Shown: piece after piece, positions 27,184 to 55,309 of the stretch
Layout of the letters: each line of letters starts with the position of its first letter
Position numbering within the stretch: the first letter of the stretch is position 1
Origin: Escherichia phage NHEP1
DNA: 64,000 bases
Direction: 5' to 3' (one strand)
Sequence record: PQ511146.1
The notes under the pieces: generated by a model
Databases searched by the model: none
What the model saw: only the letters and a program-made list of their open reading frames with translations
What the model was told of the DNA's origin: nothing
Translations under genes and position numbers: made by a program

Positions 27184-30100
27184 TTAAAGAGAGAAAGTCG
27201 CGTAGGCTCCCAGACGATACTGCTGATCACCAGGGAACATAACACCTATAGAGGCTGTCCCTAGAATCCTGCCTTCCTTTCCAGACTCCATTCTGAACCC
27301 TACCCATCCGGAACTCCTTGCAGCCTCGATGTTGTCGCTATACCCAAAAGTGGCAAGCTCGTCAACACCAGCTCCAAACAGCAACTGAAGCTGACTTCTC
27401 GGAAGCCCTATAATTTCAGGAATATATGCACCAAAGTACACCATCTGCCCTACCTTAGGACCGCTGCCGTACTCCATCGGCTTGCTTGTAGAGAAAGTCT
27501 TCATACCAGAAGTCCCTGCCGGATTAGGGTATGCCCCGTTTGTTGCTGTGCCTATCCACATTCTCCACTGAGGTGCCATCTGTCTGACAGTGAAAGATGT
27601 TGAAGACGTTTTGCGGCCTGCATCATCCGTAACTACAAACTTTATAGTGACATTACCAGGGGCTTTAAATGTTACCAATCCTGTGGTAGCATCCACTGTT
27701 GCAATGTTAGTATTACTACTTTCCCAAGTCTTTCTAATCCCTGGCACATTGGAAGGGGTAATAGAAGGTTCCTGCATCTGCAGTTTACCGCCCACAATCC
27801 CTATGCCGTTACCTGGATTATACAACGCACCAACTTCATCTACAATGTTACCTGCCTTGAGGCTGTACTTTTTAGAGAAGTTGTAAGTGCCGTTATATGC
27901 GTGTGTCCCTGAGAAGGTTACATCTGCCTTGCCGTTGGAGATGCAAACCAAAGCATACTTCCTGTCAGGCAACTGTGCCCCAGTTTCTGGGTGAGTTTTA
28001 CCCACCTGGAACACGCTCGGGTCAGTAGAGTCGTGGCTATCACTAACAGAGCTTGGACCACCCATCAACTGTGACAAGCAATTCCTTACCCATGTCCAGT
28101 TATTGTCACTGGAGAAGTCTACAGTCAAATCAAACACAACCCACTCATTTGGCTTCCACACAGGTGTTGTGATCAACTTACCAACACCCCCACCCTGAAG
28201 AGTAGGAGATTGTTCAGTGATCAGGGCAGAGTATGCCAGAGTGCCCAACTGCATAGTCTGGCTTGCTGTCCTCACTACCTTAGAATCAGCATCTGTGAAG
28301 TTGTTGATGATCTGGAATGTGCCATAAGTGTTTTTACAGGTAATTCTGGCGTTCAGTGTGTCAATCTTCCTCACATCTGCCATAGCAGTGTTAGACACAG
28401 AGAAGTCAGAAGCTTTAGCTGAGTTTGCTGCAACAGCCGGATCAACGTTGAGGGTTGCGTTGAACTGGCAGGCAGGAGTAACCAGCAGCTTGTTATCACC
28501 TATTTGCTTCCATGAAACACTTTGAACAGGGAGATTCCATTTAATACCTGAGAAAACTTTAGCAACCCTTGGTCCCAGAGCTCCCGTCCTGTTGTCTTTA
28601 CAGCACATGGACATAGTGATCGTTGACGGGGTGGCCTGACCAAACAATTGTTGTGCTTTTGCAGAGGACATGGTGTAGAAATTGTCCTTAACAAACTCAT
28701 CAGCCGCTAACGATCCGTCAGATCTCCACCATTGCACCTGGTACCCAGTCTTATCCCAGCCACCGACCTGCTTTAAGTCCTCCCAAGAGATTTCCAAATC
28801 TCCGGTGGTAGGGTTAATTGCCGCAGTTCCTGGTGTTCCAGATGACCATATTGGGATATCGAACCACGCTGGTTTAACAGACTGCACTGCGTTAGGTCCT
28901 ATTGCAGCAGCAAGTTGTTGACCCATCAATACGCGAGCATCTTTCACCAGACCCCACTCAATCATAGACCCAGAGTAACCCTCTTTCTTATATGCGGATG
29001 ACCCATTCAAGTGAATAAGTCTACTTGTGCCGAAGTTATGTGCTCCACCGCCGTTGTCGTCTGCAAAATTGGTTATGATTCTATCCCTGATGTTTTTCCA
29101 TGCCCTGCCCCCAATCTCGTAGTCATGGTCATAACATCTTTGCAGCGTTGTCCAGCAAATGATCGCCATCCTTCTGCCGTTACTGAAGCCAAAAGCCTGA
29201 TCGTTAAGCTCTCTCCACAAATAGCAGTTAGTGGTCCACATAGCTCTGTGAATGTTGAACCAGTTTATAGACTTGGCTGAGTTATCCCACTGAGTCCCAG
29301 GTAATTCAGGCCACACTGCATTAACCAGCATGTCTTCTGTTCCTGCATCAACCAAGAACCCTCTTACCTTTTTACCCATGCCTACCCTGTCTTTTGCAAT
29401 CCAACTGCCAAACAATCTCAGTTTTGGACCGTAAACAACATCTTCCGGATGCTCAAAAGAGACATACTTCAGATATACTGTAGGGTCACCATAGGTGCCA
29501 TCACAAACAGCTTTGTGCATGTTCTCGCCAAGGTCTAGACGAAGTCCTGTTACAACTTTTGACGTGTCGGTGAATTTGTCTGTTAAATCAAATTCATACC
29601 ACCACCAACCTGCACCCAACAATACCTTCTTACAACGCTGCGCATCTGTATCAGATATTCTCTTATCTCCTGAAAAAGGTGAGTCAGCAAACTGATAGTG
29701 CAGAGCAATTTCAAAAGGATGTGTGGAGGTCCCGTTTTCTGCAAGGACTTGTTTACCTATTAAGTCACACTTAATAATCATCACAACACGTTTGTACCCA
29801 TTTGTTACTGGGATCTGCATAGACATAGATGTCCCGTCCATGTTTGATCTCAGCGCAGTCATGATGATATAAGGATCAACGGCATTACCAAGAGTTTCAG
29901 GCCCTGGAATTATCTTATACTTCTTAACCTGCCCCATGATGTAATCACTGGCGTAAGTTGCAGCCTCGAAGCAAGATCCCCCGTTAGGCAGTTCCCCTGG
30001 CCCCCAGAAAAATGCGCCATAACAGTTATAAAACCACTTGTTAGGGTCGTATTTGTTCTTGAAGGTCTGAACCTCGTTGGCCTGTTTTGTCAAGAAAACC

Positions 30101-32817
30101 TGCGTATCTGTAAAGATTGCAGGGTTTACTCTTGACTGTCGATTAGCATACCCGGTTTGGTTAAACCATTGATTGCAAGAGTAATCCCTCATATAATCGT
30201 AATCAGAGTATTTGTTTGCATCCTCGTTCCAACACATGTTGAGGTTGGTGCCGCCCATGCATACAATATATTCTTCAACGTATTTATCACTTCGAGTGGG
30301 AATTCCTATGAACCATCTGTTAACAGGCTCGTCCCAAGCGGTACGTTCATCTTTAACGCAGATTGCAATCCAGTCATGTGTCCCTGTTTTCTTGCACACA
30401 TCCCGTTTCATACCGTAGTAGAATTCTTTGGTATTTGGCTCAGGTGCGCTTATCAGGTAGCTCCACGCTTGGTCTGCATAGGTTCCGTCAGTGCGTGGGT
30501 CGTGATCAAAGGCGTACATGATGATCCTTTCCCCGCCAAGATGTTCACCAAGAGTAACTTTGATGTTCACATCTCCGTAACCGTTGCGAACAACATCCAT
30601 ATTGTCAATAGAGATGCCTCTAGGGGTGTAGGCAATTTTCAGTGAGTTATCCTCACTGGTGCCCCCAAGTGTAATCCCTATGTTGTTTGTTGTCCCGTCG
30701 GCATATCTTACTGTGGCTTCCCAGCGTATTCCGAAATATCCTGCATCATGGCTGACAATTTTCAGTGTACGAGCACCTGGGTGAGGTTTTCCAGGATCAG
30801 GCCAAGGGTCTGGGTGTTCGTGGACAGTCAACGACGTTCCGTTTTGCTCGTTAACCTGCAACATTTTACCACCTCTGCCGTTAGGGTTGAACTCCCATAC
30901 GGCCTGTGTCTGCACTAAGTTGTTGTAGGTATTTCGTCTCTGATCATAAATCTCTTGGGTAACATCATAAGTGACTGATCCAGCATCCATTCTGTGGAGT
31001 CGGACCATATACGATGTATCTCCTTCTACCGCAGGCTGAGTCCCATTCAGCCCGAAGTATACAGTGTCATTAACATGGAACTGTTTGTTTCTACCGACAG
31101 TATGCCACTTACCGTCAGAAGGATACGCAGGAACTATGGTGTTCCAGTTCAAGGTCCTTGTCGTGTGCGTTCTGCCTGTGCCATGCTTGTCATGATAGGT
31201 TATTTTTACAGAGTACAGGCCACGTCTGTTCACATTCCTGTTATACTGAGTAACAACAACTTCGTTGGCCCCGCCGTGGTTCCAGTTGGTGGAGAATTGG
31301 TAATTTGCATCTGTAACAACCGTACCTGCAGCATTTACCAGTTCAATCTTGTCAATAATGAACGTAGCTCCCTCTGGCTGAGGCTTCAATTTCATCTTGA
31401 CCGTGTCACCAATGTAGATATTGCTAACGCTGCTAACACCGTTAACGTCAAAAATATCATCAACACCCCAACTATCTACTGGGACATTTTTATACCAATT
31501 CTCAGGAACCTCTGTGAACCCTTGACTATTAAGTCTGCCACCAAACAGGTTATTAGAACCTGCAAAACTTCCCCTTGGGATGCCTGACCACCAAAGTTTA
31601 CCATTAACAACAGTAAAGGTCCCTAAGAAACCTTCTCTGTGAATGCCTTGGAAATAAACACTCTCTGTCCAGCTAACTGGGAGGCGTTGCTCAACGTATT
31701 TAGCCGTAGCAAGGGCCTGGTAATGAACAAAATCGGCACGGGGGTTATTGTTTGCAGATTGTGCGCCAATATCGTTGCACAGGTTTCGAGAGAAGCCACG
31801 ATACTGCTTAGTACCATTGTTGAAGAAAATGCCACTTGTGCCGTACCCACGAGCCATTATCACCTCATGGGTGTAGGTTATATTCAAAGCACGCCAGGCA
31901 TCATCCCCCCAAACGTTTTGACCATAAAATACGTTAACAAGTTGTTGGTCATCAGGTCTGTGCATTCTTTGTGTTGCAACCACTGCCCCGTTCGGACCAC
32001 ACATGAATCCTTTCCACTCCTCATCTGCAGGAATGCCTTTCAAATCGTTGCGAGTAATCTGAGCAGGGGGCCAAACAAGGTCGTTTCTACTGTTGTTTCT
32101 CAGAAAGTCGTATCCAGCAATCCAAAAACCTCTAGGCCCACCGAAAATAACAGAGTTGTCATGCACCTCGCAGTTGATACTTGGGTTTTTCCAAGGGCCT
32201 GTTTCAGGATTTTCTGATGTTTCACCAATCTTTACAGGAGTTGCATGCTGGTTCTTATCTACATGTAAAGATCCGTAGGTGTTGTTACCAGACCCGTACA
32301 GGTGTAAAATGCCGTCACCCTCAGCCTCTGCCATAACCCAAACAGTGTTGTTAATACCACCCATTACCTCGATAAGGCGCTCTGGGTGGGTGTCAAGGTG
32401 CAATCCTTGAACAATCTGTTCCGGAAGAGGTGTCCACTCGTTTACGCAAACATCGTTACCACCTGCCGCAGTGGATCCGATAAGACCTGCAGTGCAACCG
32501 ATGTAGAAAAACTGGTTATCAAAAGTCCGGATCACAAACGCACGGTCTGCTCTCCACACATGATCAACATTCCAGGCCGTCTCGCTCGGGTAGTTTATAG
32601 GGTTACGATCCCCAGTGCGACACTCCCCGAACTTGTTATAGCCAGTAATATTAAGCTGACCGTCGTCAAAAAGTATAGCTAAGCTATTTACATAAGCTAC
32701 TGTAGTGCTTGTACCGTCACTGTTGTCTATTGGGTATGACAGAACAGCAAGTTCCTTAACTCCACCCCTCTTATCGAGGAAATGACGACCAAGTTTTAGC
32801 AAAGGGATTGGAAGCAT
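27184..32817 (-). CDS. giant putative virion protein (1877 aa) with N-terminal RCC1-like beta-propeller repeats and C-terminal-region Big_2 Ig-like domain
   Basis: RCC1-like glycine-rich repeats (GYNKFGECRTGD, YGSGNNTYGSLHVD); Big_2-like TWESSNTNIATVDATTGLVTFKAPGNVTIKFVVTDDAG; terminators on both sides. Confidence 0.6.
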   Translation of the reverse strand: MLPIPLLKLGRHFLDKRGGVKELAVLSYPIDNSDGTSTTVAYVNSLAILFDDGQLNITGYNKFGECRTGDRNPINYPSETAWNVDHVWRADRAFVIRTFDNQFFYIGCTAGLIGSTAAGGNDVCVNEWTPLPEQIVQGLHLDTHPERLIEVMGGINNTVWVMAEAEGDGILHLYGSGNNTYGSLHVDKNQHATPVKIGETSENPETGPWKNPSINCEVHDNSVIFGGPRGFWIAGYDFLRNNSRNDLVWPPAQITRNDLKGIPADEEWKGFMCGPNGAVVATQRMHRPDDQQLVNVFYGQNVWGDDAWRALNITYTHEVIMARGYGTSGIFFNNGTKQYRGFSRNLCNDIGAQSANNNPRADFVHYQALATAKYVEQRLPVSWTESVYFQGIHREGFLGTFTVVNGKLWWSGIPRGSFAGSNNLFGGRLNSQGFTEVPENWYKNVPVDSWGVDDIFDVNGVSSVSNIYIGDTVKMKLKPQPEGATFIIDKIELVNAAGTVVTDANYQFSTNWNHGGANEVVVTQYNRNVNRRGLYSVKITYHDKHGTGRTHTTRTLNWNTIVPAYPSDGKWHTVGRNKQFHVNDTVYFGLNGTQPAVEGDTSYMVRLHRMDAGSVTYDVTQEIYDQRRNTYNNLVQTQAVWEFNPNGRGGKMLQVNEQNGTSLTVHEHPDPWPDPGKPHPGARTLKIVSHDAGYFGIRWEATVRYADGTTNNIGITLGGTSEDNSLKIAYTPRGISIDNMDVVRNGYGDVNIKVTLGEHLGGERIIMYAFDHDPRTDGTYADQAWSYLISAPEPNTKEFYYGMKRDVCKKTGTHDWIAICVKDERTAWDEPVNRWFIGIPTRSDKYVEEYIVCMGGTNLNMCWNEDANKYSDYDYMRDYSCNQWFNQTGYANRQSRVNPAIFTDTQVFLTKQANEVQTFKNKYDPNKWFYNCYGAFFWGPGELPNGGSCFEAATYASDYIMGQVKKYKIIPGPETLGNAVDPYIIMTALRSNMDGTSMSMQIPVTNGYKRVVMIIKCDLIGKQVLAENGTSTHPFEIALHYQFADSPFSGDKRISDTDAQRCKKVLLGAGWWWYEFDLTDKFTDTSKVVTGLRLDLGENMHKAVCDGTYGDPTVYLKYVSFEHPEDVVYGPKLRLFGSWIAKDRVGMGKKVRGFLVDAGTEDMLVNAVWPELPGTQWDNSAKSINWFNIHRAMWTTNCYLWRELNDQAFGFSNGRRMAIICWTTLQRCYDHDYEIGGRAWKNIRDRIITNFADDNGGGAHNFGTSRLIHLNGSSAYKKEGYSGSMIEWGLVKDARVLMGQQLAAAIGPNAVQSVKPAWFDIPIWSSGTPGTAAINPTTGDLEISWEDLKQVGGWDKTGYQVQWWRSDGSLAADEFVKDNFYTMSSAKAQQLFGQATPSTITMSMCCKDNRTGALGPRVAKVFSGIKWNLPVQSVSWKQIGDNKLLVTPACQFNATLNVDPAVAANSAKASDFSVSNTAMADVRKIDTLNARITCKNTYGTFQIINNFTDADSKVVRTASQTMQLGTLAYSALITEQSPTLQGGGVGKLITTPVWKPNEWVVFDLTVDFSSDNNWTWVRNCLSQLMGGPSSVSDSHDSTDPSVFQVGKTHPETGAQLPDRKYALVCISNGKADVTFSGTHAYNGTYNFSKKYSLKAGNIVDEVGALYNPGNGIGIVGGKLQMQEPSITPSNVPGIRKTWESSNTNIATVDATTGLVTFKAPGNVTIKFVVTDDAGRKTSSTSFTVRQMAPQWRMWIGTATNGAYPNPAGTSGMKTFSTSKPMEYGSGPKVGQMVYFGAYIPEIIGLPRSQLQLLFGAGVDELATFGYSDNIEAARSSGWVGFRMESGKEGRILGTASIGVMFPGDQQYRLGAYATFSL

Positions 32818-32825
32818 TGTGTTCT

Positions 32826-32858: not shown

Positions 32859-32865
32859 AGATATA

Positions 32866-34611
32866 TTAACGTTGTGCAATAACCACATCCACAATATCAC
32901 CAACACCACAATATGTCAATTGTAGCAAGGTGACACTGTTGGCTTTGTTGTTAATAACAGGAGTAGCCGACAGTATGGCATATTTATCGTGTAAGGTCAC
33001 GTTGTGGCCTACAGCATCCTGAATGACATAGATGATTGCAGTGAACGGGTAAGGTTTATCTTCAGCCGATGTTCCAGGCCATTGCCCTATTGTAAAATCC
33101 CCTTTCGCGTGGACAACATACATATTGGCCTGCCCGTTAGGTGTCCATGTCCCACTAGATGCGTCAGCCTCCTCTAAGTCAAACTCCACCTTCCCTGCAT
33201 GGAAAGCAGGGGCAGTAATAGTTTTACCAGCTTCAATTTCTTGAGAGGTGGTTATCTTGCCACTGGAGTTAATGCCATTACAGACAAAGTTGACATTAGA
33301 GAAGTCTGGCAGCCACCCAGTCACTGTACCTGATATTTCAAGGTTGTGAAGGTAGGTGGTGCCCGTCCCTGCTGCGTTTAAACTAACATCTCCATTTACC
33401 TGCAAGTTTCTGGTAACGTTGCAGTTTTCAGAGTTTGCAGTTGTTGCAGTTAGAGTGGTGGTTGTCAGCTCGGTAATTGCACCTTTGTTGGCTGTAAGCC
33501 CTTCTCCTTCAAAAGTGGCACGCTCATTCACCCTCAGAGTATTTAAAGATATGTTCTGGACAGATGCTGTGCCACGAATGACTATAGATCCGCCAACCTC
33601 TAAATCTCCATTGATCAGTGCATCTCCCGTGCTTTCAATATAGCTAGGGTAGATCATGGTGCCATCTACAGAGTAGGTTATCCCTGTAACGGTGCCTGTC
33701 ACCTCAAGGTTCTTAACCCTGGTGGTCCCATCAACCTGCAATGTCGGTTCGGTGGCTGCCTTCATGGCATTACCGCGAATGTACACGTAGTCAAAAAAGT
33801 TATTACCTAGACCATCAAAATGCACATCGTTGTTATTAGCCACTGGTTTCCCAGAAGTTATAGTGTCAGCTATAGCTCTGTGAGTTGATACTTCATGAGG
33901 TTGCAGCTCTGTGCTTCTCCAGTCTGCATGCTTAGGATCGCTCCACGCAAAGGTTAGTGTAGAAGTATTTGCAGTAAGGATTAGGTTCCTGAAGCGTGCA
34001 GTAGAATCTGCTCCATTAACAGGCCCGTGTAAGGTAAGGGTGCCCCCAACTATGGTGTTGGCAAGTTCTGTAAGACCTTTTACCACCAAAGATCCTACAG
34101 TAACTTTCATCCCCTCCATGGCTTTAAATATGCTATCCACATAGTCAACAACAAACTCTGTGTTTGCTATAGATTCGGACTTATCGTCCATTGGAGGTGT
34201 AGGTACTCTCGGGTCACCTTCGAACCTTGGACTGTTAAGTTTTGCGTAGTATTTTGCCATTACTGCAGAATCGGTATATAATCTCCAGTTCGGAGATCGT
34301 GAAGGATCTGCTGGCATCCTAACCGGGTTAGATTTTGATGCTGCTGGGGCGTACCACCACTGAGTGCCTGTATCCCCTTTAAACTCATACAACTGGTTAA
34401 AAACTGTTGTGGATGCACCATACGCCCAAGGGATTGGTGGCGTTTTAAAATAAAGGGTGTCAAGCATGGCTTTTCGTACCGTAGGGATGGTGGTCCCATC
34501 CTCTACGACAACTTCATCCACAGCGTTACCGTTGACAATCAAGTGCAAACGTTCAGAATCAACAATTACTTGATCTACCGCCTGCTCAAAGCTTGTCATG
34601 TCTTGCGCCAT
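32866..34611 (-). CDS. tail fibre / tailspike-like protein
   Basis: 581 aa; repetitive beta-rich segments (NLEVTGTVTGITYSVDG, NLEISGTVTGW) in fibre gene cluster. Confidence 0.55.
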   Translation of the reverse strand: MAQDMTSFEQAVDQVIVDSERLHLIVNGNAVDEVVVEDGTTIPTVRKAMLDTLYFKTPPIPWAYGASTTVFNQLYEFKGDTGTQWWYAPAASKSNPVRMPADPSRSPNWRLYTDSAVMAKYYAKLNSPRFEGDPRVPTPPMDDKSESIANTEFVVDYVDSIFKAMEGMKVTVGSLVVKGLTELANTIVGGTLTLHGPVNGADSTARFRNLILTANTSTLTFAWSDPKHADWRSTELQPHEVSTHRAIADTITSGKPVANNNDVHFDGLGNNFFDYVYIRGNAMKAATEPTLQVDGTTRVKNLEVTGTVTGITYSVDGTMIYPSYIESTGDALINGDLEVGGSIVIRGTASVQNISLNTLRVNERATFEGEGLTANKGAITELTTTTLTATTANSENCNVTRNLQVNGDVSLNAAGTGTTYLHNLEISGTVTGWLPDFSNVNFVCNGINSSGKITTSQEIEAGKTITAPAFHAGKVEFDLEEADASSGTWTPNGQANMYVVHAKGDFTIGQWPGTSAEDKPYPFTAIIYVIQDAVGHNVTLHDKYAILSATPVINNKANSVTLLQLTYCGVGDIVDVVIAQR

Positions 34612-34620: not shown

Positions 34621-34887
34621 TTAAGCTTTTTGCTCTTCGTTTTTAACGTGGTCAGGGTGCTGGCAACCCCACCGGAGCGAGATGAATTTGCTAATAAGCT
34701 GGGGGCAAGCTACCGAAGGTGCGTATATCCACGCATACCATTCAGGAAGCGTATCATTGTACCCCATATGAATAAACACCCCAGTCATCACTGCCATGCC
34801 TATGTTTGACCATAGCTTAGATTGGGACACTTTCGTAGGGTCATCAGATGCCGCAACCAACCCCCATAAAAACTGAGTTAATTTCAT
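34621..34887 (-). CDS. small membrane protein (holin candidate, speculative)
   Basis: 88 aa; hydrophobic segment LWSNIGMAVMTGVFIHMG. Confidence 0.3.
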   Translation of the reverse strand: MKLTQFLWGLVAASDDPTKVSQSKLWSNIGMAVMTGVFIHMGYNDTLPEWYAWIYAPSVACPQLISKFISLRWGCQHPDHVKNEEQKA

Positions 34888-34896: not shown

Positions 34897-35940
34897 TTAA
34901 GCATAAGATATGGTGATCCATTGACCGTTTACAAATTTTTGAATAGCACCAGTCCAATAGTCACCTTGATACGGGTGTTTATAGGCGTAATTGCCGGAGC
35001 ACATTACATGCCCAGGGTATACTCTTGATTCTCTGTAGGTGGTTCTGAAACGGTTTGCTATCCTTACATCTTCAACACCCCTACTAGGCATAGGGATAGT
35101 AAGGTTACCACTGCTATCTGCGCTACTACCATTTACCCTGCGGACCACGTTTCTCCCACCAACTGTTGCATATTGACCCCTGGCGGTTTTATCGTTACAA
35201 TCTACTCTTCCACCTATTTGAGCGCTGCCGCAGGATTGTTGTCCATTAACAGTGGCTCTTGGTATCGTTACCGCATTGGCATTTGCAGAGGAGCTTTTTG
35301 CATCATTGCATTCAAGATTTCCTTGGATAGCCAGTCTTGCACGGTTGGCAGTTATAGCATTGAGCTTCATAGCCGAAAACACAGGCTGCCCACCAGAAGG
35401 TTGAAATCTCCAACGGAAACCGTCTATTTGGTGAGAAGGATCATCAAGGTCTGTGCCGTCAGCGCCACCGATGTTGTCCATAATCCAGAAATCCATCATC
35501 GTCTTGTCTGGAGTTATGGTGGTGTATATCGCCGCATTGTCTGTTGACGCAGATGCAAACTCAATTCTTTGAAGACCTAAAGTTTGAGTCTGGATCATTG
35601 TGTCTCCAGTCTTGTCAACATAAAGGTCATCCATTTCTTCAGGCGAGTATACATTGAGAACTTGACGTGCAGCAGCTTTGTCTGGAACGTCTGCCAGATT
35701 ATTAGTGACCCTTAAGAATCTATTATCCCATCCAGGGACAACATCTTCTGTTAAATGCTTTAGCCACGCAGAGAGCATGTGGAGTTCAAAGTTAACAACT
35801 TCACATGCTATCCTTTGTGTCACATCCCAACCTTTCAATCTCTCTTCTTTGTTCGGTTGAGATTTGTTCAACTCTCCTGTATTTTCAAGCACAACATCCT
35901 GATTGGCCCAAATATCGAGAGGGATAACTGGTTTAGTCAT
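34897..35940 (-). CDS. tail fibre protein, paralog A (P2 gpH-like C-terminal tip)
   Basis: 347 aa; N-terminus and C-terminal tip (QKFVNGQWITISYA) clearly similar to 36956..37996; ATG after AGGAGAAC SD. Confidence 0.6.
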   Translation of the reverse strand: MTKPVIPLDIWANQDVVLENTGELNKSQPNKEERLKGWDVTQRIACEVVNFELHMLSAWLKHLTEDVVPGWDNRFLRVTNNLADVPDKAAARQVLNVYSPEEMDDLYVDKTGDTMIQTQTLGLQRIEFASASTDNAAIYTTITPDKTMMDFWIMDNIGGADGTDLDDPSHQIDGFRWRFQPSGGQPVFSAMKLNAITANRARLAIQGNLECNDAKSSSANANAVTIPRATVNGQQSCGSAQIGGRVDCNDKTARGQYATVGGRNVVRRVNGSSADSSGNLTIPMPSRGVEDVRIANRFRTTYRESRVYPGHVMCSGNYAYKHPYQGDYWTGAIQKFVNGQWITISYA

Positions 35941-35974
35941 CACGTTCTCCTGAGAAAATTCCTTAAGGACTATT

Positions 35975-36030: not shown

Positions 36031-36345
36031 TTACCTTTTACTATGCTCTACAAGCATGTGTAAAATCTTTTGTACATCAGCTCTGATACCGGAGACATCT
36101 GTCCTGACATCTTGCTTAAGGTCGTTAATATCGGCCTCTAGCTTACTTAGCCGGGTCTCAATAATGGAATCAAGTCTATCTTTTGTAACCATGCTATTTT
36201 TCACTAAAATGAGGTCTTTCTCCAGCTCATCCAGCCTCTTGGAAATGCCTTTCCATTTGGTGTGCCACTGGTTGAAAGCCCATACACAGATCGGGACAAC
36301 GGTACCCATGCAGATACCGTACAGTGCCGCCAAATCCAACTCCAC
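36031..36345 (-). CDS. membrane-anchored coiled-coil protein (spanin- or chaperone-like, speculative)
   Basis: 104 aa; N-terminal TM LAALYGICMGTVVPICVWAF then charged heptad-like region. Confidence 0.35.
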   Translation of the reverse strand: MELDLAALYGICMGTVVPICVWAFNQWHTKWKGISKRLDELEKDLILVKNSMVTKDRLDSIIETRLSKLEADINDLKQDVRTDVSGIRADVQKILHMLVEHSKR

Positions 36346-46957: not shown

Positions 46958-47511
46958 ATGATCGGGCGGCTTGCCACCTGATCCACATATTTAAAAAATC
47001 TGTCATTATCGTTTCTTGAGCTATGGCTCTCCTCTGTGTACCGATAAGGAAAACCTCTTAACCAGCTGTTGAAGATGGAAGATATGGATATGGACAAAGC
47101 ACTATTCTCCCCTGTCTGAATAGCCATGTCTGTTATAAGGCCGTCAAACAAGCCATTGGTTGTAACAGGTAAACCATTCTCCATAGCTGTGATATACAAC
47201 GTGGCACGACAACCCGAATACTCCGTCTTCAGCAGATCACCTACATACTTGGGATCAAACCCGTTCAATGTTGCTACCACAGATCCGAAGTTGGTGGCAT
47301 CTTTCTCAGACACAGCAGTCAATGTTGCTGATCCACCTATCCCTATAAAATGTTGCCCCTCAATCACCACAACACCAGTTCCTGAGCACACCCTGACAGT
47401 CCCTGTTGGTAGCTCTAGCTTTGCAGCAATTAAGATCTCAACACTATCAAGCTCCAGCTTTTCAAGAAATAAATTATCTAATGGCGCTCTAATCATCTTA
47501 GAAATCCTCAA
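46945..47511 (-). CDS. tail tip assembly protein (hypothetical)
   Basis: 188 aa; overlapping stop/start with neighbours. Confidence 0.4.
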   Translation of the reverse strand: MRISKMIRAPLDNLFLEKLELDSVEILIAAKLELPTGTVRVCSGTGVVVIEGQHFIGIGGSATLTAVSEKDATNFGSVVATLNGFDPKYVGDLLKTEYSGCRATLYITAMENGLPVTTNGLFDGLITDMAIQTGENSALSISISSIFNSWLRGFPYRYTEESHSSRNDNDRFFKYVDQVASRPIIWEV

Positions 47512-48088
47512 AGAAGTTGATAACTATATTATCACCTTTTTGCATAGCATCGACTTTTTGCTTAATTTTATAAATATCTCTGATATGAAACCTACCCTTT
47601 GGGGATTGAGTTATTATCTTCATAGTGTCCCCTGCGGCAATAGGTTTTCTAAGTCTTGGAGATATGCTTATAACAGCAGACCCAACACCATCGCTGCGCA
47701 CTGGAGCTGTTACCACTTTCAATTCATCGTTAACAGATATTTTATCCCCAGCTCTGGCTATGTCTCTGTTTGGCTCCCATCCGACCGTCTTCAAAAAATC
47801 GTCGTTACCAGTAGGCCCAAGGGCGATTGGCTCATTAGCTGTTACTGAGTGACCGTACGTTTTAATAAGAAAAATGTTCCCATCTTTATACACCTGATCA
47901 ACAAAGCTCTTAAGCTCTAGCAGTTGTGACTCGCTGATATTGGAAACCGTCAAAGTGCCTTTCCAGTTAGGTGTGGCATAGGTCACTTTTTGCGTTTTAC
48001 CTGTAAACGGACTTTTAAACGTAACAATATCTGCCAGCAGCTCCAATCTGATGTCTGGAAGGTATCTAGGCCTTTCCCATAAAAACAT
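47498..48088 (-). CDS. tail tip protein (hypothetical, distal-tail-like position)
   Basis: 196 aa; first gene after terminator 48148-48180. Confidence 0.4.
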   Translation of the reverse strand: MFLWERPRYLPDIRLELLADIVTFKSPFTGKTQKVTYATPNWKGTLTVSNISESQLLELKSFVDQVYKDGNIFLIKTYGHSVTANEPIALGPTGNDDFLKTVGWEPNRDIARAGDKISVNDELKVVTAPVRSDGVGSAVISISPRLRKPIAAGDTMKIITQSPKGRFHIRDIYKIKQKVDAMQKGDNIVINFFEDF

Positions 48089-48187: not shown

Positions 48188-51100
48188 TTACTTCAGTTTC
48201 TCTTGCAGCCCAGTAACAACCTCTGTCAATTTTTTAACCTGTTCCTCAAGGGCGGTTATTTTATCATCCTGTTCCCTACAAACTTGGACAAGCAAGCCTG
48301 TCACAGCTGCGTAATCCACGCTGTAGAATCTTTCCTCTGTTATCAAAGGAGTTCCATCTTGCGTGGGATCAGGAGCCTCTTTCCTTTGCACGAAAGATCC
48401 AACCGCTTCAGGTAATGCTTCCATAACCTCTTGAGCAATTACCCCTGCGTAAGGCATACCATTCTCTTTTAAAGTGTAGGTATAGCCATTCATCTTCCGG
48501 ATAGCTTCTAACGCGTTAGGAATAACTTCTATGTTATCCTTCAGGTCGCGGTCAGAGTTTTGGTTCACGGATACACAGTTTACTGCACCGTTTACAGAAA
48601 GATATCTTGATTTATCCGGCAAGGTACCACAATGCCATACCCAATTTGCTTGAGAATCGTCAAGAACCTTAAACTCCAACACGTTTGGACGATTTCCTGT
48701 GCTGCCGTTGCCCCAATAGTGCATATGAGCGCTATTCGCAGGCATGTTGCCACCGTTATTAGTGACATGGCTTCCAGAAATATATACCTTTAACTCTGGG
48801 GTCGGTATTTCCCCTTCTGGGGTTGTTCCTCCATACCTGAAGCTAACACCGTTACCGCCTGTTTGGGTCCACGGTCCCCAAGTAAAGACCTGCTTCACCA
48901 TATTCCCATAACGTATAAATCTATCGCCGTGATAGGTAATATACTCTTGAACACACCCATTACCGTTATTGGCGTTATTTTGTAACACAATGAGTGTCCC
49001 GGCCTCATTTACGGGATAATGACGATCATTTGTTGCATCATTATTTGCAGGCTGATGGTAAATACCCTCCCACAATCCGTGATAGGTATTAAGGTCTGAA
49101 GTACCAAGGCCTTGACCCCTGTGCTGCATGGCCTTATTCCAGGGGTGATGATTACCACCTTCTATAGACCTGGTGTATAAGTTACTTTGTCTGCCAGCAA
49201 TCTGGAAAGCGTAGTTTCCTGAGAATCCTACAGATAAGCCACCTACAACCATGGTGTCTTGTGGACCGTTAACATTACCAGCTATTATTTTTGACGGGTT
49301 GTTAGGCCCGAACTGGTTGTTCCAGTCTGCACCAGTATGACATACAAAACCACCAGGAGCTGAGAAAGTACCGTCCTTGTTGAAGTTGTAGAATCTATGA
49401 GCTGTGCCTACCACATCACGAACAATAACTTGACCAGCCTCTGGGGTGGATCTGAACTCTGCCTGTCCTTGCAGTCTTGCACCATTACCACATTTAGAGG
49501 TAAAGGTGTTGTTGATCAGATCCTCTGTTCCTTCCGATGCAGCTTGGAACCCTGCGTTAGAGAACAGTGCTTTCCTGGTGGTTTGGCTACCTGGACAAAT
49601 GTAGTTAAGACCATTATACCACATCTCTACAGGAGGCATCTCTGTCTTACTCATCAGAACCATTCTGTCAGGTGTGCCTATATAGTGCCAGCCTGCGCCA
49701 CCCCCAGTATAGAACCCTGATGTTCCCTTGAACTCAGCAAGAGGTCTGGTGTTTGTTACATCATCACCTTTAATTGCAAGACTTAAATTATCTGATGCAA
49801 GAGGGGCGCAAAACTTGACACCATCTTGGTTGTTAGTTACATTCCCTACCTGCCAGTCATTTTCTCTGGTAAATACCTCAAGAACGTTTCTGCTTGCGTA
49901 GATACTAACAGGGAAAGCACGCGCCTCAACATAGAATGCAACATACTCCTGCTTTCCTCTGGTTGGAGCTATGCACCCAAGAATTGCTTTCTCGTTTTGG
50001 TAGAAATTAATAACACCTTGGAAAGAATCCCCCCTATCCGTCCAGCCACCAGTTCTGTAGTGACACTGCAAGGTAGCACAGTTCATAGGGTCATTTCCAG
50101 ATGAAGATCTGGTGACTATAGTAATATCCGTACCTGTCGAAGGGGCGTAATACGGATCTGTTCTAACGATGATTGGGTAGTATTTCCCATCTTCCATCCC
50201 TGCGGTTCTTGGCAGTGTTAAGAAATCTTTTACACCTGCTGCTACAGGAACTCTAAACATATTCTGAGCTTCTGCCAGAGTTGTAACCCCAGTACCACCT
50301 GCTGCCTGAGGTAAAGGTTCCCACTTGGCCTTCCGGTTGTTATAAACACCCCATTCCAGAGTACCATTACCGGATTCATCCATCCCTCCATCCCAGATTA
50401 CCATTTTTGCGGCTTTCTTGGATCCCCAGAACCCTCTTTCTGCTCCTGAACTACGGATCCATTCTCCGAGTCCCCAGTTTGTCAGCTGACCAGTAAGATC
50501 CCCAACCTGCATGTATTTAGGACAGTCTAATACGCCGTCTTCGCGGAAACCTAAATATCTATGGGTTTCAGATCCTTTTGCACCTTTGTGTAGGTGGATT
50601 GTTAACCACGCCTTATTGTCGTTTCTTACCTCGGAATAGATCCTATACCCATGCTCAAGGACACCGTCAGCACTGTATTTGTCCCCGTGAACAATGCCAG
50701 ATGCCGACTTGACATCAGCAGAGCTTTGAGACAGGTAAAGGTGCCCGAAGGTAGGAGAATTCCTAGACCCAAGACCTATGTGCGATCTAAAGGTCTCATC
50801 GTTACGAGGTCTGACCATCGGCTGCCATGCAGTCCACTGGTTTGTGTTGGCCTGATAAGTTCTCAAATACCAAACATCTACGTTAGAGAATGGGTAGTAT
50901 TCCTGACGACAGCCTGTGCCGCCGTTAGCATTGTTCTGCCAAACAATTAGGTGACCCGCACCAGAACCTGCAGGGTAACCATTTGCCTCAGTTGCATTAG
51001 CAGTCATCGGCTGGTAGTATACACCATCCTGATTACCAGTCAAGTTATTGATATTGAAATTTGCCTCAAGGGCTGCACGTTGCTTATAGAAAGCCCCTAA

Positions 51101-52006
51101 GTTAATGCGTGCACCTGCGGCATCTTTGGCCCCTGTACCACCCTGCTCTATAGCAAGAGGTTGCCACGAAGCTGTTTGTTGGTTCCACATACCCCAACGG
51201 CCTGTTGCATCAAGCTGCAAGTACCCTGCCGTGTTTAAATCATCTCCGGCACGGATAACTGTTCTTGTTGGGTTGTTTGCCTCCAGGCGTTTAAATTCGT
51301 CACGAAGTGCTATTCTTTTTGTTGTTGCTACACCGTTGGTTACTGCAATGGTATACATGGCTCCAGAGGTAGCGCCACGGAAAATGCCATCAACAGTTGT
51401 AGTATCACGACGAGATACCACACCGTTCAGAAATTTTTCACCAGCTGCTTCAGAAGGGTAGTTAGTAGTTCTTCCCTCTTCAATAACTGCAGGACCAACA
51501 AAGTTGACAAGGTGAATAACATCACCTACAGTATGCACTGTACCAAAATCTACCCGCTGTGCAAGTGCTTTAGCATCGTTGGCTGTCTGAACAGTAACAT
51601 CCATTACATCCTGGACAGACTGCCCTTCGGCTGTCATGATCATAGATGCGCCAATGGTAGATTCTAGCTCCTCCCTTAGGGACGGGTCAGTATATACCAT
51701 CCACGCAGCGTCAGTAATCCCACCGTCAGAATATGGTGAAGACAGTGCAGGGACAGTGTGTGGAAATTCGCCTTTCCAACGCAGGTATAGATCTTCCTCT
51801 TCGAAGTAGGCAAAATCCATTGGGCCGTTTAACTTACCACCTTCCTTAAAGGAGATTACATGAGAAACAGTCCCATCCACATGGACAACATCGCCAATTT
51901 TTACACGACGGGTCAGGTCTGGTTGTTGAACAACCAGGTAATCATCCTCTGTCACTGCGGTAGTGGCAGGAAGAGATTCAATTCTGACAACTTTAATATC
52001 AGCCAT
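48188..52006 (-). CDS. long tail fibre / tailspike with C-terminal intramolecular chaperone (Peptidase_S74-like) domain
   Basis: 1272 aa; C-terminus SDRDLKDNIEVIPNALEAIRKMNGYTYTLKENGMPYAGVIAQEV then coiled coil; N-terminal 120 aa homologous to 54641..55309. Confidence 0.7.
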   Translation of the reverse strand: MADIKVVRIESLPATTAVTEDDYLVVQQPDLTRRVKIGDVVHVDGTVSHVISFKEGGKLNGPMDFAYFEEEDLYLRWKGEFPHTVPALSSPYSDGGITDAAWMVYTDPSLREELESTIGASMIMTAEGQSVQDVMDVTVQTANDAKALAQRVDFGTVHTVGDVIHLVNFVGPAVIEEGRTTNYPSEAAGEKFLNGVVSRRDTTTVDGIFRGATSGAMYTIAVTNGVATTKRIALRDEFKRLEANNPTRTVIRAGDDLNTAGYLQLDATGRWGMWNQQTASWQPLAIEQGGTGAKDAAGARINLGAFYKQRAALEANFNINNLTGNQDGVYYQPMTANATEANGYPAGSGAGHLIVWQNNANGGTGCRQEYYPFSNVDVWYLRTYQANTNQWTAWQPMVRPRNDETFRSHIGLGSRNSPTFGHLYLSQSSADVKSASGIVHGDKYSADGVLEHGYRIYSEVRNDNKAWLTIHLHKGAKGSETHRYLGFREDGVLDCPKYMQVGDLTGQLTNWGLGEWIRSSGAERGFWGSKKAAKMVIWDGGMDESGNGTLEWGVYNNRKAKWEPLPQAAGGTGVTTLAEAQNMFRVPVAAGVKDFLTLPRTAGMEDGKYYPIIVRTDPYYAPSTGTDITIVTRSSSGNDPMNCATLQCHYRTGGWTDRGDSFQGVINFYQNEKAILGCIAPTRGKQEYVAFYVEARAFPVSIYASRNVLEVFTRENDWQVGNVTNNQDGVKFCAPLASDNLSLAIKGDDVTNTRPLAEFKGTSGFYTGGGAGWHYIGTPDRMVLMSKTEMPPVEMWYNGLNYICPGSQTTRKALFSNAGFQAASEGTEDLINNTFTSKCGNGARLQGQAEFRSTPEAGQVIVRDVVGTAHRFYNFNKDGTFSAPGGFVCHTGADWNNQFGPNNPSKIIAGNVNGPQDTMVVGGLSVGFSGNYAFQIAGRQSNLYTRSIEGGNHHPWNKAMQHRGQGLGTSDLNTYHGLWEGIYHQPANNDATNDRHYPVNEAGTLIVLQNNANNGNGCVQEYITYHGDRFIRYGNMVKQVFTWGPWTQTGGNGVSFRYGGTTPEGEIPTPELKVYISGSHVTNNGGNMPANSAHMHYWGNGSTGNRPNVLEFKVLDDSQANWVWHCGTLPDKSRYLSVNGAVNCVSVNQNSDRDLKDNIEVIPNALEAIRKMNGYTYTLKENGMPYAGVIAQEVMEALPEAVGSFVQRKEAPDPTQDGTPLITEERFYSVDYAAVTGLLVQVCREQDDKITALEEQVKKLTEVVTGLQEKLK

Positions 52007-52011
52007 TCTTT

Positions 52012-52036
52012 CTCCTGAAAGGGGGCAAACAGCCCC
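52012..52036 (-). other. intergenic hairpin GGGGGC-UGUUU-GCCCCC immediately upstream of fibre gene SD (weak terminator/attenuator)
   Basis: 6-bp GC stem between stop of 52042..54639 and AGGAGAAAGA SD of 48188..52006; short UUUC tail. Confidence 0.4.
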
Positions 52037-52041
52037 CTATG

Positions 52042-54639
52042 TTAAAGGTACAATCCACGGTATTGAGCATAAAGTCCCAGACCGCGAAGGATTTCGCCAG
52101 AGTGATAGCCTACCGGATCAGAAACTGCCCAGCAGCCGTTTAAAACATTATCCCCGTTAATGAAGTGGTGCTTTTGCAGTAACTTCATACAGGCTTCTAC
52201 AACAATATCTATTTGAGGTATTGTCTCTGAATACCCGCAAAGACCTAGCCAGCAGCAACCTGCAAGCCATTCACCTACCACCCACATCCTGTCTCCTCTG
52301 TCCTGATAAGAGTATCCTCCAGAGGTGTTAAAGTCTGTAGGTAGATTTCCTGAATGAGATGACTGGAATCTGTTGAGGAACCATGCCCATTTCTGGCAGA
52401 ACAGGAACAGTCTTTCATCAACAGGTTCTTTATGTTTCTTGAGCTCATATATTGTGCGGCACGCAGCAACAAAAGATCTTGACTGGAGCTTAGAGTTATC
52501 TACCATCTCCCACCAACCAGTCAACCCTTCATTACCTCTTTGCCATACATAACGTGAGGCAACTGGACCCTCTGTCTTAAATGTATTATTATACCAGACT
52601 TGAGAGTCGTACAGAAAGCCTATTGTATTTGACAATCTATGGCGATCTATGTTTTCTGCACCCATGCAGTAGACTGCTGGGTATTGCATGCCAGGGTAGG
52701 GCCAATTTGGCTTTTCCTCTAAGAGATAGTTTTCCTTATCTATCACCTTCCCAGCAGGGAACACACCAGGAGTGTGTCTGTATGCTCCTTGCTTGTAGTT
52801 TCTGACATAGCAATCACCAACCTTGGCGGTTGATTCTGTCTTGCTTGCCATCCATACACTAAACCAGATCAGATAAGCATCCCTATCTGCAACATAAAAT
52901 TGCGGCAGCGTGTTGACGCAATACAGATCGAACAAGCCATTGCCTATCTGCCTGTCGCTCAGACTGAAATCTACAGAGGTAATTCCTTTAGGGTTAGCAA
53001 AGAAAGGTTTAATCTCATCTTCTGTGTGATGAGGTTGTGTTGGGTCTAGTTTAAAATCGCCCAGGGTAAGAGTTTCTGTTATCCATTGCCCGTTAGTAGC
53101 ATATAGATCAGCATACCATAACCAACGGTCTTTGTCAAGAAATTTGACCCTTACCATCTCATCATCTGACCGATAAGTCACTGAGTTTAAAGAAATCTCT
53201 CTTCCAAAATTGAAAGTTACCTTGCCTCTTACTATGTTGCAACGGGTGAAGTTGTCAGAGTGGTTGTAAATGTCGGTATCATACTGCATACTGACACTCG
53301 CGCCACCGCTTACGGTAATGTTTTCCTCTTTTGGCAAGAGATACGGGTTACCGTCTTTACCAACCACCTCCACGAAATCGGTGACCTTGGCAACTGTCTC
53401 TGTTACCTCTGACCCTCCAAAAGGGACCCCTATCCTATACTGTTTTTTGTTATTGTTGCCATCATTAAGGATGAAATGTGGCTGAAACAGAACCCCTTCT
53501 CCTCCGAAATTCATAACAATTTCAGCATCTCTGCCTATTTTGTATGTAATCCCTTTTTGGATTATTTCGCAAGGCTGGCGTGCGTTCATTCTAAAATTGA
53601 TATATCCGTCACTATCCCTACTCATGACAGGTACTGTTCCTGCAACTAGACAGGTGCCATCTGTGAACGGAGCCTTAATCAACGTGGTCTTTCTAAACAG
53701 TTTGTCGTAGGCATTTATATCACTGAAATTAAGCAGCTTGTTGTAAGATTGCTTAAACGCTGTGTAATACTTTTCCTCACCTGTCAAGGTATAGAGTTGA
53801 TAACAAGCGTCACACCACATTTCTTCCCCGTCCAACTCTGGGGCTTGATTGTCTGCAACCACGTTTATAGGATTTACAATTACAGGGGATCCAGCAGGTA
53901 TCACCGATCCACCCTGCTCTTGTGGCAATCTCACACAGTAGGTTACCTTGTGGCTGCCTGTAACACCCTTATCCTGCAGTTGGATTGTGCCGAACTCTGC
54001 AGACGTATGACCACTATCGGCTATGCTACCATTGGCCCAATAGCGGTTACCATCCCATGCTATATACCACTCAACCCACCAACTTAATCCAGATGTTGTC
54101 CAATTTGGGTTAGCATCTGTGCCGCCGTAAACATCAGAGTCTACAGTGTTTCTTCCTAGCACACCGTTATACGCTTGGAATGCCTTGTCTAAGTATTCTC
54201 CCCATGTCGGGGATCCAGCTGGGATTTTTCCTCTACCATTGGTGAAAGACACCACTACATCTTTAAACCCACCATGTGATGGAACCCCATCTGTGGATAA
54301 CGGGTAGTGGGACAATCTTTGCATTTTACTTTCTACTGCATATACGCCCAGAAGATGACTGTTGTAGGCTTCCCAAGCCTCTTTGGCCCTATCTAGATAA
54401 AAATCGCTTTTTGATGCCCTGTATGCCTCAATGTACCCCAGAATCAACACAGCCTGAGCTTCATGCATTGCCCAATCATTATTTATCTTACTCCCTGACC
54501 AACCTGACGCTATAAGTCCATCCTGGTTTACCAGTTTGTTCTGCGTGGGGAGATTGGTAATGCCTGTGTTGTTATCGAGGCACTTCCTGTGCCCCTCAAT
54601 CATCTGAAATACGTTATCAATGTTGTGTTGAATACGCAT
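52042..54639 (-). CDS. putative tail-associated polysaccharide-degrading enzyme (alpha/alpha-toroid-like, speculative)
   Basis: 865 aa; aromatic/Trp-rich helical segments at both ends with beta-rich middle; own AGGAG SD inside the end of the upstream gene; start 1 nt after upstream stop. Confidence 0.35.
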   Translation of the reverse strand: MRIQHNIDNVFQMIEGHRKCLDNNTGITNLPTQNKLVNQDGLIASGWSGSKINNDWAMHEAQAVLILGYIEAYRASKSDFYLDRAKEAWEAYNSHLLGVYAVESKMQRLSHYPLSTDGVPSHGGFKDVVVSFTNGRGKIPAGSPTWGEYLDKAFQAYNGVLGRNTVDSDVYGGTDANPNWTTSGLSWWVEWYIAWDGNRYWANGSIADSGHTSAEFGTIQLQDKGVTGSHKVTYCVRLPQEQGGSVIPAGSPVIVNPINVVADNQAPELDGEEMWCDACYQLYTLTGEEKYYTAFKQSYNKLLNFSDINAYDKLFRKTTLIKAPFTDGTCLVAGTVPVMSRDSDGYINFRMNARQPCEIIQKGITYKIGRDAEIVMNFGGEGVLFQPHFILNDGNNNKKQYRIGVPFGGSEVTETVAKVTDFVEVVGKDGNPYLLPKEENITVSGGASVSMQYDTDIYNHSDNFTRCNIVRGKVTFNFGREISLNSVTYRSDDEMVRVKFLDKDRWLWYADLYATNGQWITETLTLGDFKLDPTQPHHTEDEIKPFFANPKGITSVDFSLSDRQIGNGLFDLYCVNTLPQFYVADRDAYLIWFSVWMASKTESTAKVGDCYVRNYKQGAYRHTPGVFPAGKVIDKENYLLEEKPNWPYPGMQYPAVYCMGAENIDRHRLSNTIGFLYDSQVWYNNTFKTEGPVASRYVWQRGNEGLTGWWEMVDNSKLQSRSFVAACRTIYELKKHKEPVDERLFLFCQKWAWFLNRFQSSHSGNLPTDFNTSGGYSYQDRGDRMWVVGEWLAGCCWLGLCGYSETIPQIDIVVEACMKLLQKHHFINGDNVLNGCWAVSDPVGYHSGEILRGLGLYAQYRGLYL

Positions 54640-54640
54640 C

Positions 54641-55309
54641 TTAGATAGCTCCTGCTATAATCAGTGCCCCGTACCAAGTTAGCCCGTTGTCGTAGGTTTC
54701 TAACTTGAAAATATCTGTTGCACCAGCTGTAAATGTTAGGATAGGATCTCTTCCGTATGCCCATTTAACATTATCAGGCCAATAGACTTTGTTACCGCCA
54801 GAGGTCTGAGTAATGCATACGGTTATAGTTCTCGCTACCCCTTCAAGACCTTCTGTCTGATTTTCAAAAGAGATTGTGGTATTTGAAGTTAGTCGAACTT
54901 TAAAAGTGTCCGCAACTTCAAGATCCATATCAAGCTGACCACCAATAGATCCGTAATCAACTATTCTGCCAGAAGAAGTTGCAGCAAGCTCCCCAAAAAC
55001 AGACCAGGCTTTTGCAGACACACCCCCAGCACCCTCTACAGTAGAGTCTGGGAGGATTATTTTAGGGTAATCCCCGTTCCACGTGTAGTATCGCTTGGTC
55101 TCTGGGTCATAAGCAAAGTCCTTCTTGCTCTTAAGATAACCGCCCTCTGTGAAATAAACTATTTTAGTAATGCTAAGATCATTGACAACATCATCAATCT
55201 TAGCCTTTCTTGTCCCGTCAGTCTGGTTGACAACCAAGAAGTCATCACTCAAGACTGTTTCTGCATCTTCAAGATCTGGGATTGGTATTGTAGGATAAGC
55301 TACAGCCAT
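54641..55309 (-). CDS. tail fibre N-terminal anchor-domain protein (adapter)
   Basis: 222 aa; DDFLVVNQTDGTRKAKIDDVV...FTEGGYLKSKKDFAY aligns with N-terminus of 48188..52006 (DDYLVVQQPDLTRRVKIGDVV...FKEGGKLNGPMDFAY). Confidence 0.55.
   Translation of the reverse strand: MAVAYPTIPIPDLEDAETVLSDDFLVVNQTDGTRKAKIDDVVNDLSITKIVYFTEGGYLKSKKDFAYDPETKRYYTWNGDYPKIILPDSTVEGAGGVSAKAWSVFGELAATSSGRIVDYGSIGGQLDMDLEVADTFKVRLTSNTTISFENQTEGLEGVARTITVCITQTSGGNKVYWPDNVKWAYGRDPILTFTAGATDIFKLETYDNGLTWYGALIIAGAI

Follow-up and report, generated by a model that had tools for sequence, protein, structure and literature searches.

An adaptor-like gene conserved beside a putative glycosidase gene in the multi-fibre cluster of the rV5-like Escherichia phage NHEP1

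Introduction

A paper by Schwarzer from 2012 reportedly presented a phage adsorption apparatus as a "nanosized Swiss army knife". The multivalent adsorption apparatus of phages rV5, phi92 and PVP-SE1 is known under this name (also Kropinski 2013, Maffei 2021), and the rV5 proteins gp41 (1272 amino acids, aa), gp42 and gp43 (222 aa) were found in virions by mass spectrometry (PMC3606486). In phage phi92, a cryo-electron microscopy (cryo-EM) study (2026) identified fibre III as a Mu-like short fibre and inferred that gp143 is at the tip of fibre I; fibre II, which is short and thick and located at the base of fibre I, was left without assignment, with gp140 as a candidate and gp141 not considered. 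The same authors noted a resemblance between gp140 and Pa223 gp52, a trimeric capsid spike with a TNF-fold knob at its C-terminus, and a review lists gp141 as a glycosidase. Here we describe the corresponding genes in a 64,000-nucleotide (nt) stretch of Escherichia phage NHEP1 (PQ511146.1), hereafter the window, in which positions 27184-55309 encode a series of fibre and baseplate proteins, among them a 222-aa homologue of gp43 and gp140 and an 865-aa homologue of gp42 and gp141.

The region is the known multi-fibre host-recognition cluster of a Vequintavirus (rV5-like) E. coli phage. Its large receptor-binding arsenal, which an earlier note on this DNA had pointed out, is confirmed by our analysis; as a whole it is already published for rV5-like phages and is not new. 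Our main proposal concerns two neighbours within it: judging from sequence conservation, the 222-aa protein probably mounts the 865-aa putative glycosidase on the baseplate, and the two would form a portable cassette of anchor, dock and cargo.

Results

Gene order and the adaptor-enzyme junction

The 7.1-kb core of the cluster (48188-55309) matched 123 phage records, 115 of them with more than 80% query coverage and the best at 92-93% nucleotide identity; nearly all of these records belong to rV5-like Escherichia phages (genus Vequintavirus). The gene order, from the tape measure gene through the last giant fibre gene, is that of phage MaxBurger, and each cluster protein is 92-99% identical to its MaxBurger counterpart, with the exception of a 1381-aa gpJ-like protein (71%), the sole strongly variable allele. 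All genes considered here are on the minus strand, where every fibre or spike gene listed in the earlier note was found. An all-against-all BLAST comparison of 19 cluster proteins gave cross-matches between the 222-aa and 1272-aa proteins and between two short fibres, and no others. The features needed for the main argument are as follows.

52042-54639, minus strand: 865-aa virion protein resembling (alpha/alpha)6 six-hairpin glycosidases, with beta-sandwich insertions; homologue of rV5 gp42 and phi92 gp141
54641-55309, minus strand: 222-aa adaptor, homologue of rV5 gp43, with an N-terminal anchor and a proposed C-terminal docking domain; PF18668 at residues 51-104; phrog_7760
54995-55309, minus strand: anchor module of the adaptor, residues 1-105, shared with the 1272-aa fibre according to BLAST
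54644-54976, minus strand: C-terminal domain of the adaptor (C-domain), residues 112-222, all-beta, the proposed enzyme dock; conserved at the extreme C-termini of proteins encoded directly upstream of enzyme homologues
48188-52006, minus strand: 1272-aa long fibre, homologue of rV5 gp41; anchor at residues 1-105 (nt 51692-52006), S74 chaperone at residues 1151-1272 (nt 48191-48556), PF18668 at 46-103; phrog_6578

Inspection of the junction between the adaptor gene and that of the 865-aa protein (hereafter the enzyme) confirmed the reported start of the latter 1 nt after the stop of the former: the sequence is ATC TAA G ATG, with the two open reading frames (ORFs) in different frames. A Shine-Dalgarno sequence, AGGAG, lies 9 nt upstream of the ATG of the enzyme gene.

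The adaptor consists of a common anchor and a distinct C-terminal domain

The 222-aa protein is 98.6% identical to its counterparts in rV5 and MaxBurger. About 120 N-terminal residues had been thought to be common to this protein and the 1272-aa fibre. When the two N-termini were aligned, the similarity proved significant (residues 8-105 of the 222-aa protein and 7-105 of the 1272-aa protein, 38% identity over 99 aa, E = 2e-18), and the Pfam family PF18668 (Tail_spike_N) was found in both (E = 3e-10 and 2e-10, respectively), but the common part extends over about 105 aa. In the Protein Data Bank (PDB), sequence matches for the Tail_spike_N region were 4qnl, 4oj5, 5w6f and 5w6h, and PF18668 is the domain of CBA120 TSP1 and G7C gp66. 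The N-terminal motif of the anchor also occurs in PVP-SE1 gp51 and gp49 and in phi92-like gp140; the PVP-SE1 record already labels gp49 as a fusion with an N-terminus resembling rV5 gp43.

The description of the 222-aa protein as anchor-only had to be abandoned. Its C-terminal half is a distinct conserved domain and is the part that travels with the enzyme, and the phi92-like adaptor, with just 157 aa, consists of an N-terminal peptide and the C-domain. Profile searches for the C-domain found no Pfam family and no sequence relative in the PDB. The domain ends in an Asp-box-like motif, T.DGG.TW.G, which probably explains why GenBank calls the 222-aa protein a "sialidase domain protein". As a statement of function we rejected this label; the best Pfam match, BNR, had an E-value of 0.027 and was found in 6 of 28 members.

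Conservation of the adaptor-enzyme pair

A word-index homologue search gave four matches for the adaptor, five for the enzyme and none for a C-domain fragment. When 1.84 billion representative proteins were scanned exhaustively with HMMER, only 91 clusters related to the enzyme came up. On one metagenomic phage contig (P0004), the gene of an enzyme homologue (27% identity) comes after that of a 244-aa protein, and its start codon overlaps the stop of the latter. Over its last 78 residues this 244-aa protein shares 46% identity with the end of the 222-aa protein (E = 3e-20). At the N-terminus it shows no relation to the 222-aa protein and instead resembles the N-terminus of the fibre encoded just upstream. 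In a Burkholderia prophage (P0005), the protein preceding the enzyme is a 473-aa SPRY-domain protein with the adaptor C-domain (E = 3e-9), and in PVP-SE1 and phi92-like phages the sheath-initiator gene is followed by the adaptor, the enzyme and a variable fibre. The anchor follows the type of the resident fibre, N-termini being common to adaptor and fibre in rV5, PVP-SE1 and an 84-kb phage.

The pairing was then tested in both directions. In the forward test, IMG/VR was scanned with an alignment of the C-domain, which gave 80 loci. The C-domain ended 0-24 residues before the stop codon in all 80, and in about 50 the gene after it encoded an enzyme homologue, with its start codon at -56 to +3 nt relative to the adaptor stop. 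These enzyme-paired adaptors formed at least 10 clusters with unrelated N-terminal parts and with lengths from 156 to 563 aa.

In the reverse test, 185,579 bacterial and archaeal species genomes were scanned with the C-terminal third of the enzyme, and 38 loci were obtained in Pseudomonas, Serratia, Proteus, Pseudescherichia, Escherichia, Aeromonas, Acinetobacter, Stenotrophomonas, Halomonas and other genera. An ORF with the C-domain ended at the enzyme start in 24 of the 38 (E = 1e-13 to 1e-50); one adaptor from Aeromonas carries the lambda-type "prophage tail fibre N-terminal" domain PF08400. At nine loci there was no adaptor, and the enzyme was a 1097-aa protein whose first 142 residues are the P2 baseplate protein gpI (PF09684, Tail_P2_I, E = 3e-52). 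A single locus encoded a 1512-aa protein of the P0031 type, in which residues 151-250, immediately ahead of the enzyme part, resemble the adaptor (E = 3e-5 to 4e-4). In two others the enzyme ORF was incomplete and the upstream region was not judged, one was not assigned to any class, and the last (L122) is taken up in the Discussion. The gpI fusions are from Serratia and Pseudomonas lundensis (L102, L106, L109, L110, L112, L113, L116, L117 and L121), and in Serratia phage PCH45 (212 kb) an enzyme homologue is annotated as "tail protein I".

Three N-terminally extended homologues, P0024, P0031 and P0033, were also compared with the adaptor. The BLAST comparisons were not significant, and the hidden Markov model (HMM) matched P0031 alone, so that a Rosetta-stone fusion of the P0031 type is suggestive only. 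A metagenomic protein of 293 aa (P0065) has the reverse order, with residues 18-194 matching the N-terminal part of the enzyme and residues 202-273 matching the adaptor C-domain (HMM E = 2e-22); it could be an assembly artefact or a distinct arrangement.

Among 50,697 GenBank phage genomes, the adaptor was present in 536 records and the enzyme in 524, and the counts by organism were close to each other (adaptor/enzyme: Escherichia 245/242, Salmonella 99/101, Vibrio 58/62, Campylobacter-labelled 23/23, Cronobacter 12/12). The functional coupling of the two genes suspected from their spacing is supported, adjacency being kept in both directions across unrelated phages and prophages. About 20 GenBank records labelled "Campylobacter phage" (host C. 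jejuni) hold the E. coli rV5-type cluster with 97-99% protein identity, and the host labels of these entries look doubtful.

Inspection of these loci suggests that the conserved unit is the C-domain together with the enzyme, and that the anchor is the variable part, copying the fibre anchor of the resident phage. The two-gene state is common and fusions are the exceptions, which does not agree with the view that the pair arose as a split of one gene. At some of the IMG/VR loci (L059-L086), which hold distant homologues of the C-domain, the domain ends fibres of up to 2096 aa, and in place of the glycosidase gene a Laminin_G_3 or Gly_rich_2 gene follows within about 12 nt or overlaps. This arrangement hints that the C-domain may be a general dock for separately encoded distal proteins.

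The 865-aa protein is predicted to have a six-hairpin barrel

The 865-aa protein has no match in Pfam and no sequence relative in the PDB. When its profile was compared with PDB sequences, weak matches (E about 2e-3) were obtained on the hairpin repeat of GH76 enzymes and epimerases. Modelling with AlphaFold2 on an alignment of 37 homologues gave a pLDDT of 88.1 and a pTM of 0.82, and the model, when tested for the six-hairpin (alpha/alpha)6 barrel, was found to have this fold. As read from the secondary-structure map of the model, the barrel helices would come from about residues 1-305 and 650-865, and beta-rich insertions would occupy about 100-260 and 320-640. One part of the insertions (about 480-580) matches phrog_23426, and another phage has a stretch like it in a neighbouring fibre. 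The enzyme-like character claimed for the protein is thus upheld by a predicted hydrolase-type fold. The idea that the cargo is a tailspike is not, the protein being modelled as a globular (alpha/alpha)6 barrel with inserted beta-domains.

Six-hairpin enzymes place their active sites at the helix starts of the barrel. In the model, E60, Q62, D270 and E849 are at or next to helix starts, and they are kept in 35-37 of the 37 homologues, whose identity is 23-33%. For most enzyme homologues the alignment begins at about residue 5-15 and the protein starts directly with the barrel; from these alignments, the 865-aa protein appears to lack an attachment module of its own. Across Vequintavirus the enzyme differs little (97% identity to MaxBurger), which would fit a conserved glycan target.

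Other fibres and baseplate proteins of the cluster

The other features of the cluster, including the gene directly upstream of the pair, are as follows.

55319-56035, minus strand: 238-aa sheath-initiator-like baseplate protein, homologue of phi92 gp139, encoded directly upstream of the cassette; matches the gp139 homologue of the phi92-like phage PATM with 26% identity (E = 4e-17); phrog_120, baseplate wedge subunit
42375-48088, minus strand: siphovirus-like tip module of a 196-aa Dit-like protein, a 188-aa tail protein, a 145-aa DUF6950 protein and the 1381-aa gpJ-like fibre (variable allele); phrog_1302, phrog_2048, PF22262; PF09327 and PF24489
40081-42269, minus strand: baseplate wedge proteins of 496 aa (Baseplate_J) and 228 aa; PF04865; phrog_4056
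38009-40081, minus strand: 690-aa protein with an N4-type TIM-barrel domain; PF23845 (E = 8e-80), PF23844, PF03160
34897-37996, minus strand: two paralogous short tail fibres of 346 aa (36956-37996) and 348 aa (34897-35943), flanking a 194-aa chaperone and a 104-aa ORF
32866-34611, minus strand: 581-aa fibre, its N-terminal part homologous to the phiTE long tail fibre (PDB 9cuy_g, E = 1.6e-77, residues 8-325)
27184-32817, minus strand: 1877-aa giant fibre or structural protein with a C-terminal Ig-like domain (Big_2, intimin-like); PF02368 at 1685-1732; phrog_15684 over the full length; weak PDB matches to intimin

In the cryo-EM structure of phi92, gp139 serves as the sheath initiator. At its C-terminus, the 1272-aa fibre has the S74 chaperone that the earlier note had proposed (Peptidase_S74, PF13884, residues 1151-1202, E = 5e-15), with S1151 and K1156 in an SDRDLK motif; we take the spacing of these two residues to match the Ser-Lys dyad of endosialidases.

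Two fibres in the cluster had been called paralogous and P2-gpH-like. They are paralogous (43% identity, E = 2e-95), as are the two short fibres of rV5, described as 42% identical (PMC3606486), but the label is approximate, because the similarity is to the phiTE short tail fibre at the N-terminus (9cuy_c, E = 2e-19) and to Mu gpS at the C-terminus (residues 286-343; 5yvq, E = 4e-6). The 194-aa protein between them is a tail-fibre assembly chaperone (Caudo_TAP, PF02413, E = 7e-12). According to the cryo-EM study of the Pectobacterium phage phiTE, the N-terminus of the short tail fibre binds wedge 1, and the part of the long fibre that is homologous to the 581-aa fibre binds wedge 2A and the C-terminal helix of the sheath initiator. 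By analogy with the wedge proteins gp145/146 of phi92 and wedge 1/2 of phiTE, the 496-aa and 228-aa proteins are the probable attachment platform for the fibres. The 581-aa fibre showed no similarity to the adaptor. At least three anchor types coexist in the cluster, because the 581-aa and short fibres match the N-termini of the phiTE long and short fibres, respectively, and the 222-aa and 1272-aa proteins have Tail_spike_N.

Three further host-interaction proteins in the cluster (690, 1381 and 1877 aa) were outside the list of the earlier note. For the first, the literature assigns the PF23845 N4-type protein as the binder of the N4 glycan receptor. The tip module to which the 1381-aa protein belongs is siphovirus-like and lies within a myovirus baseplate cluster; PVP-SE1 and phi92-like genomes have no such module at this position. 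Between the fibre genes there are also two small ORFs, both kept in MaxBurger: an 88-aa predicted membrane protein (34621-34887, minus strand, phrog_1322, category "moron") and the 104-aa ORF (36031-36345, minus strand, phrog_5345). Just downstream of the 1877-aa gene, the GC skew, which is negative elsewhere, is positive at 20-26 kb, indicating a plus-strand gene block (window positions 20000-27000).

Discussion

Proposed role of the adaptor-enzyme cassette

The region as a whole is the multivalent adsorption apparatus of an rV5-like myovirus, with at least eight host-interaction proteins on one baseplate. In the mechanism we propose, the anchor of the adaptor, its first approximately 105 residues, would plug into the same kind of baseplate site as the 1272-aa fibre, and its last approximately 110 residues would form an all-beta knob to hold the 865-aa protein, which is translated separately. 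The 1-nt spacing of stop and start may favour coupled translation and thereby matched amounts of the two proteins. Most likely, the 865-aa protein would cleave or grip a conserved surface glycan in the first, reversible phase of adsorption. We favour this docking of the enzyme on the adaptor because the pairing is conserved, the anchor is swapped, the enzyme has no anchor of its own, gpI fusions occur, and both rV5 proteins were found in virions; physical docking, stoichiometry, catalysis and substrate are what we infer from these observations.

Several points weigh against this reading. The adaptor alone was modelled poorly (pLDDT 45, shallow alignment), and the 865-aa protein belongs to no sequence-defined CAZy or Pfam family, so that catalysis is not assured. 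The P0031-type fused form is weak (hhalign P = 0.0016 over 28 columns). At L122, which is complete, the enzyme is present with no adaptor or fusion detected. The remotest homologues of the C-domain precede other genes, encoding a Laminin_G_3 lectin, Gly_rich_2 or a product without a Pfam match, and the C-domain could instead be a fibre tip of a general kind that itself binds. The conserved adjacency could also come from co-assembly or co-regulation instead of docking.

Some of these points are accommodated if the 222-aa protein is a self-sufficient mini-fibre whose knob binds a receptor, with the 865-aa protein attached elsewhere and the two genes adjacent as a co-inherited block. The reported resemblance of phi92 gp140 to Pa223 gp52 is in favour of this view, since a TNF-fold knob is often of a binding type, and the unrelated genes that follow the remote C-domain proteins and the adaptorless L122 are in accordance with it. 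Nevertheless, we regard it as rather unlikely: the pairing outlasts both a complete swap of the adaptor N-terminus and transfer across unrelated phage types, in almost every pair the stop codon of the first gene touches or overlaps the start codon of the second, and the enzyme, itself anchorless, is joined to a baseplate protein at loci that lack the adaptor.

Alternatively, the 865-aa protein may be mainly structural, as a non-catalytic arm or a carbohydrate-binding scaffold that forms, with the 222-aa protein, the proximal part of a branched fibre bearing the 1272-aa or another receptor-binding protein, in the manner of the K1E/K1-5 adaptor arm. The presence of the adaptor's anchor on the 1272-aa fibre itself suggests parallel, not serial, attachment, and in the gpI fusions of P2-like prophages the enzyme comes last. 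In phi92, fibre I is L-shaped, its proximal arm has no assigned protein and fibre II is at its base, which leaves room for such an arm. The large beta-sandwich insertions, one module of which is common to a neighbouring fibre in another phage, and the lack of a CAZy family by sequence would also suit a scaffold; against this, near-invariant acidic and polar residues at the barrel helix starts suggest that an active site has been preserved. On balance, we consider a mainly structural role improbable.

That the two ORFs represent a single tailspike gene, recently interrupted by a nonsense mutation or a frameshift or else read through by programmed frameshifting, is hardly credible, for although stop and start are 1 nt apart and the frames differ, the same layout and gap are found in MaxBurger, in more than 100 related genomes and in distant lineages, the enzyme ORF is preceded by an AGGAG of its own, and the N-terminus of the enzyme aligns with the N-termini of free-standing homologues.

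A wider version of the docking proposal can be put forward only tentatively. The C-domain knob and the gene that follows it may be a portable dock-and-cargo cassette by which many tailed phages and prophages, and probably tailocins, attach non-fibrous proteins to the fibre anchor that they happen to use, with a cargo that is mostly an (alpha/alpha)6 glycosidase and, in remote cases, a lectin or a glycine-rich adhesin; possibly, the rV5/phi92 pair (gp43/gp42 and gp140/gp141) forms the short thick "fibre II". The cassette is a specific, testable candidate for the fibre density that has no assigned protein in the baseplates of phi92 and rV5-type phages. It also defines a small, uncharacterised family of virion glycosidases of putative activity, which comprises the 91 clusters yet is found in about 1% of sequenced phage genomes, with hosts including Escherichia, Salmonella, Vibrio, Erwinia and Pseudomonas. 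If the knob were indeed a general plug, it would provide a natural handle for mounting foreign enzymes on phage tails in host-range engineering.

Comparison with known systems

At the level of the arsenal, no difference from the rV5/phi92/PVP-SE1 apparatus was found. The genes and their order are the same, proteins are 92-99% identical, several fibres are co-expressed, and glycan-active domains, paralogous short fibres and an S74-type fibre are shared. The short fibres also fit the Mu gpS/P2 gpH type of fibre with a Tfa chaperone in having an adjacent Caudo_TAP gene and a C-terminus that, compared with Mu gpS, is Mu S-like. Compared with the six-hairpin hydrolases of GH8, GH76, GH88 and GH105, the 865-aa protein differs in its low identity (10-13%), in having no Pfam match, in a predicted barrel that is split by insertions and in being borne on the virion.

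The adaptor-enzyme pair shares features with three described arrangements. In G7C (gp66/gp63.1) and CBA120 (TSP1-4), as here, there is a Tail_spike_N domain, and one protein carries another that is enzymatically active, as we propose for the pair. The cargo there is a trimeric beta-helix spike with an N-terminal docking part of its own, whereas here it is predicted to be a globular (alpha/alpha)6 protein, and the proposed dock is a C-terminal knob without sequence similarity to any solved structure; in particular, no T4 gp10-like (XD) docking domain was found in the adaptor C-domain at the sequence level in PDB and Pfam searches. By arrangement, the pair is also like the adaptor of K1E, K1-5 and SP6, a small protein that links the tail to separately encoded depolymerases and carries modular cargo. 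Unlike in those phages, the adaptor here has its anchor in common with a second full-length fibre, and it is the pair of dock and cargo that is conserved and the anchor that is exchanged. In gene order, the pair is analogous to gp37-gp38 of T2 and S16, where the distal gene is also directly downstream of the fibre gene and the distal protein has no anchor, and the remote C-domain families have glycine-rich or lectin-like downstream genes. Here, in contrast, the cargo is a large protein with an enzyme fold, as modelled, and the fibre is no more than a stub of 222 aa. In the rV5/phi92/PVP-SE1 literature that we compared, this pairing of adaptor and enzyme does not appear; as proposed, it is another form of the known adaptor-plus-depolymerase theme.

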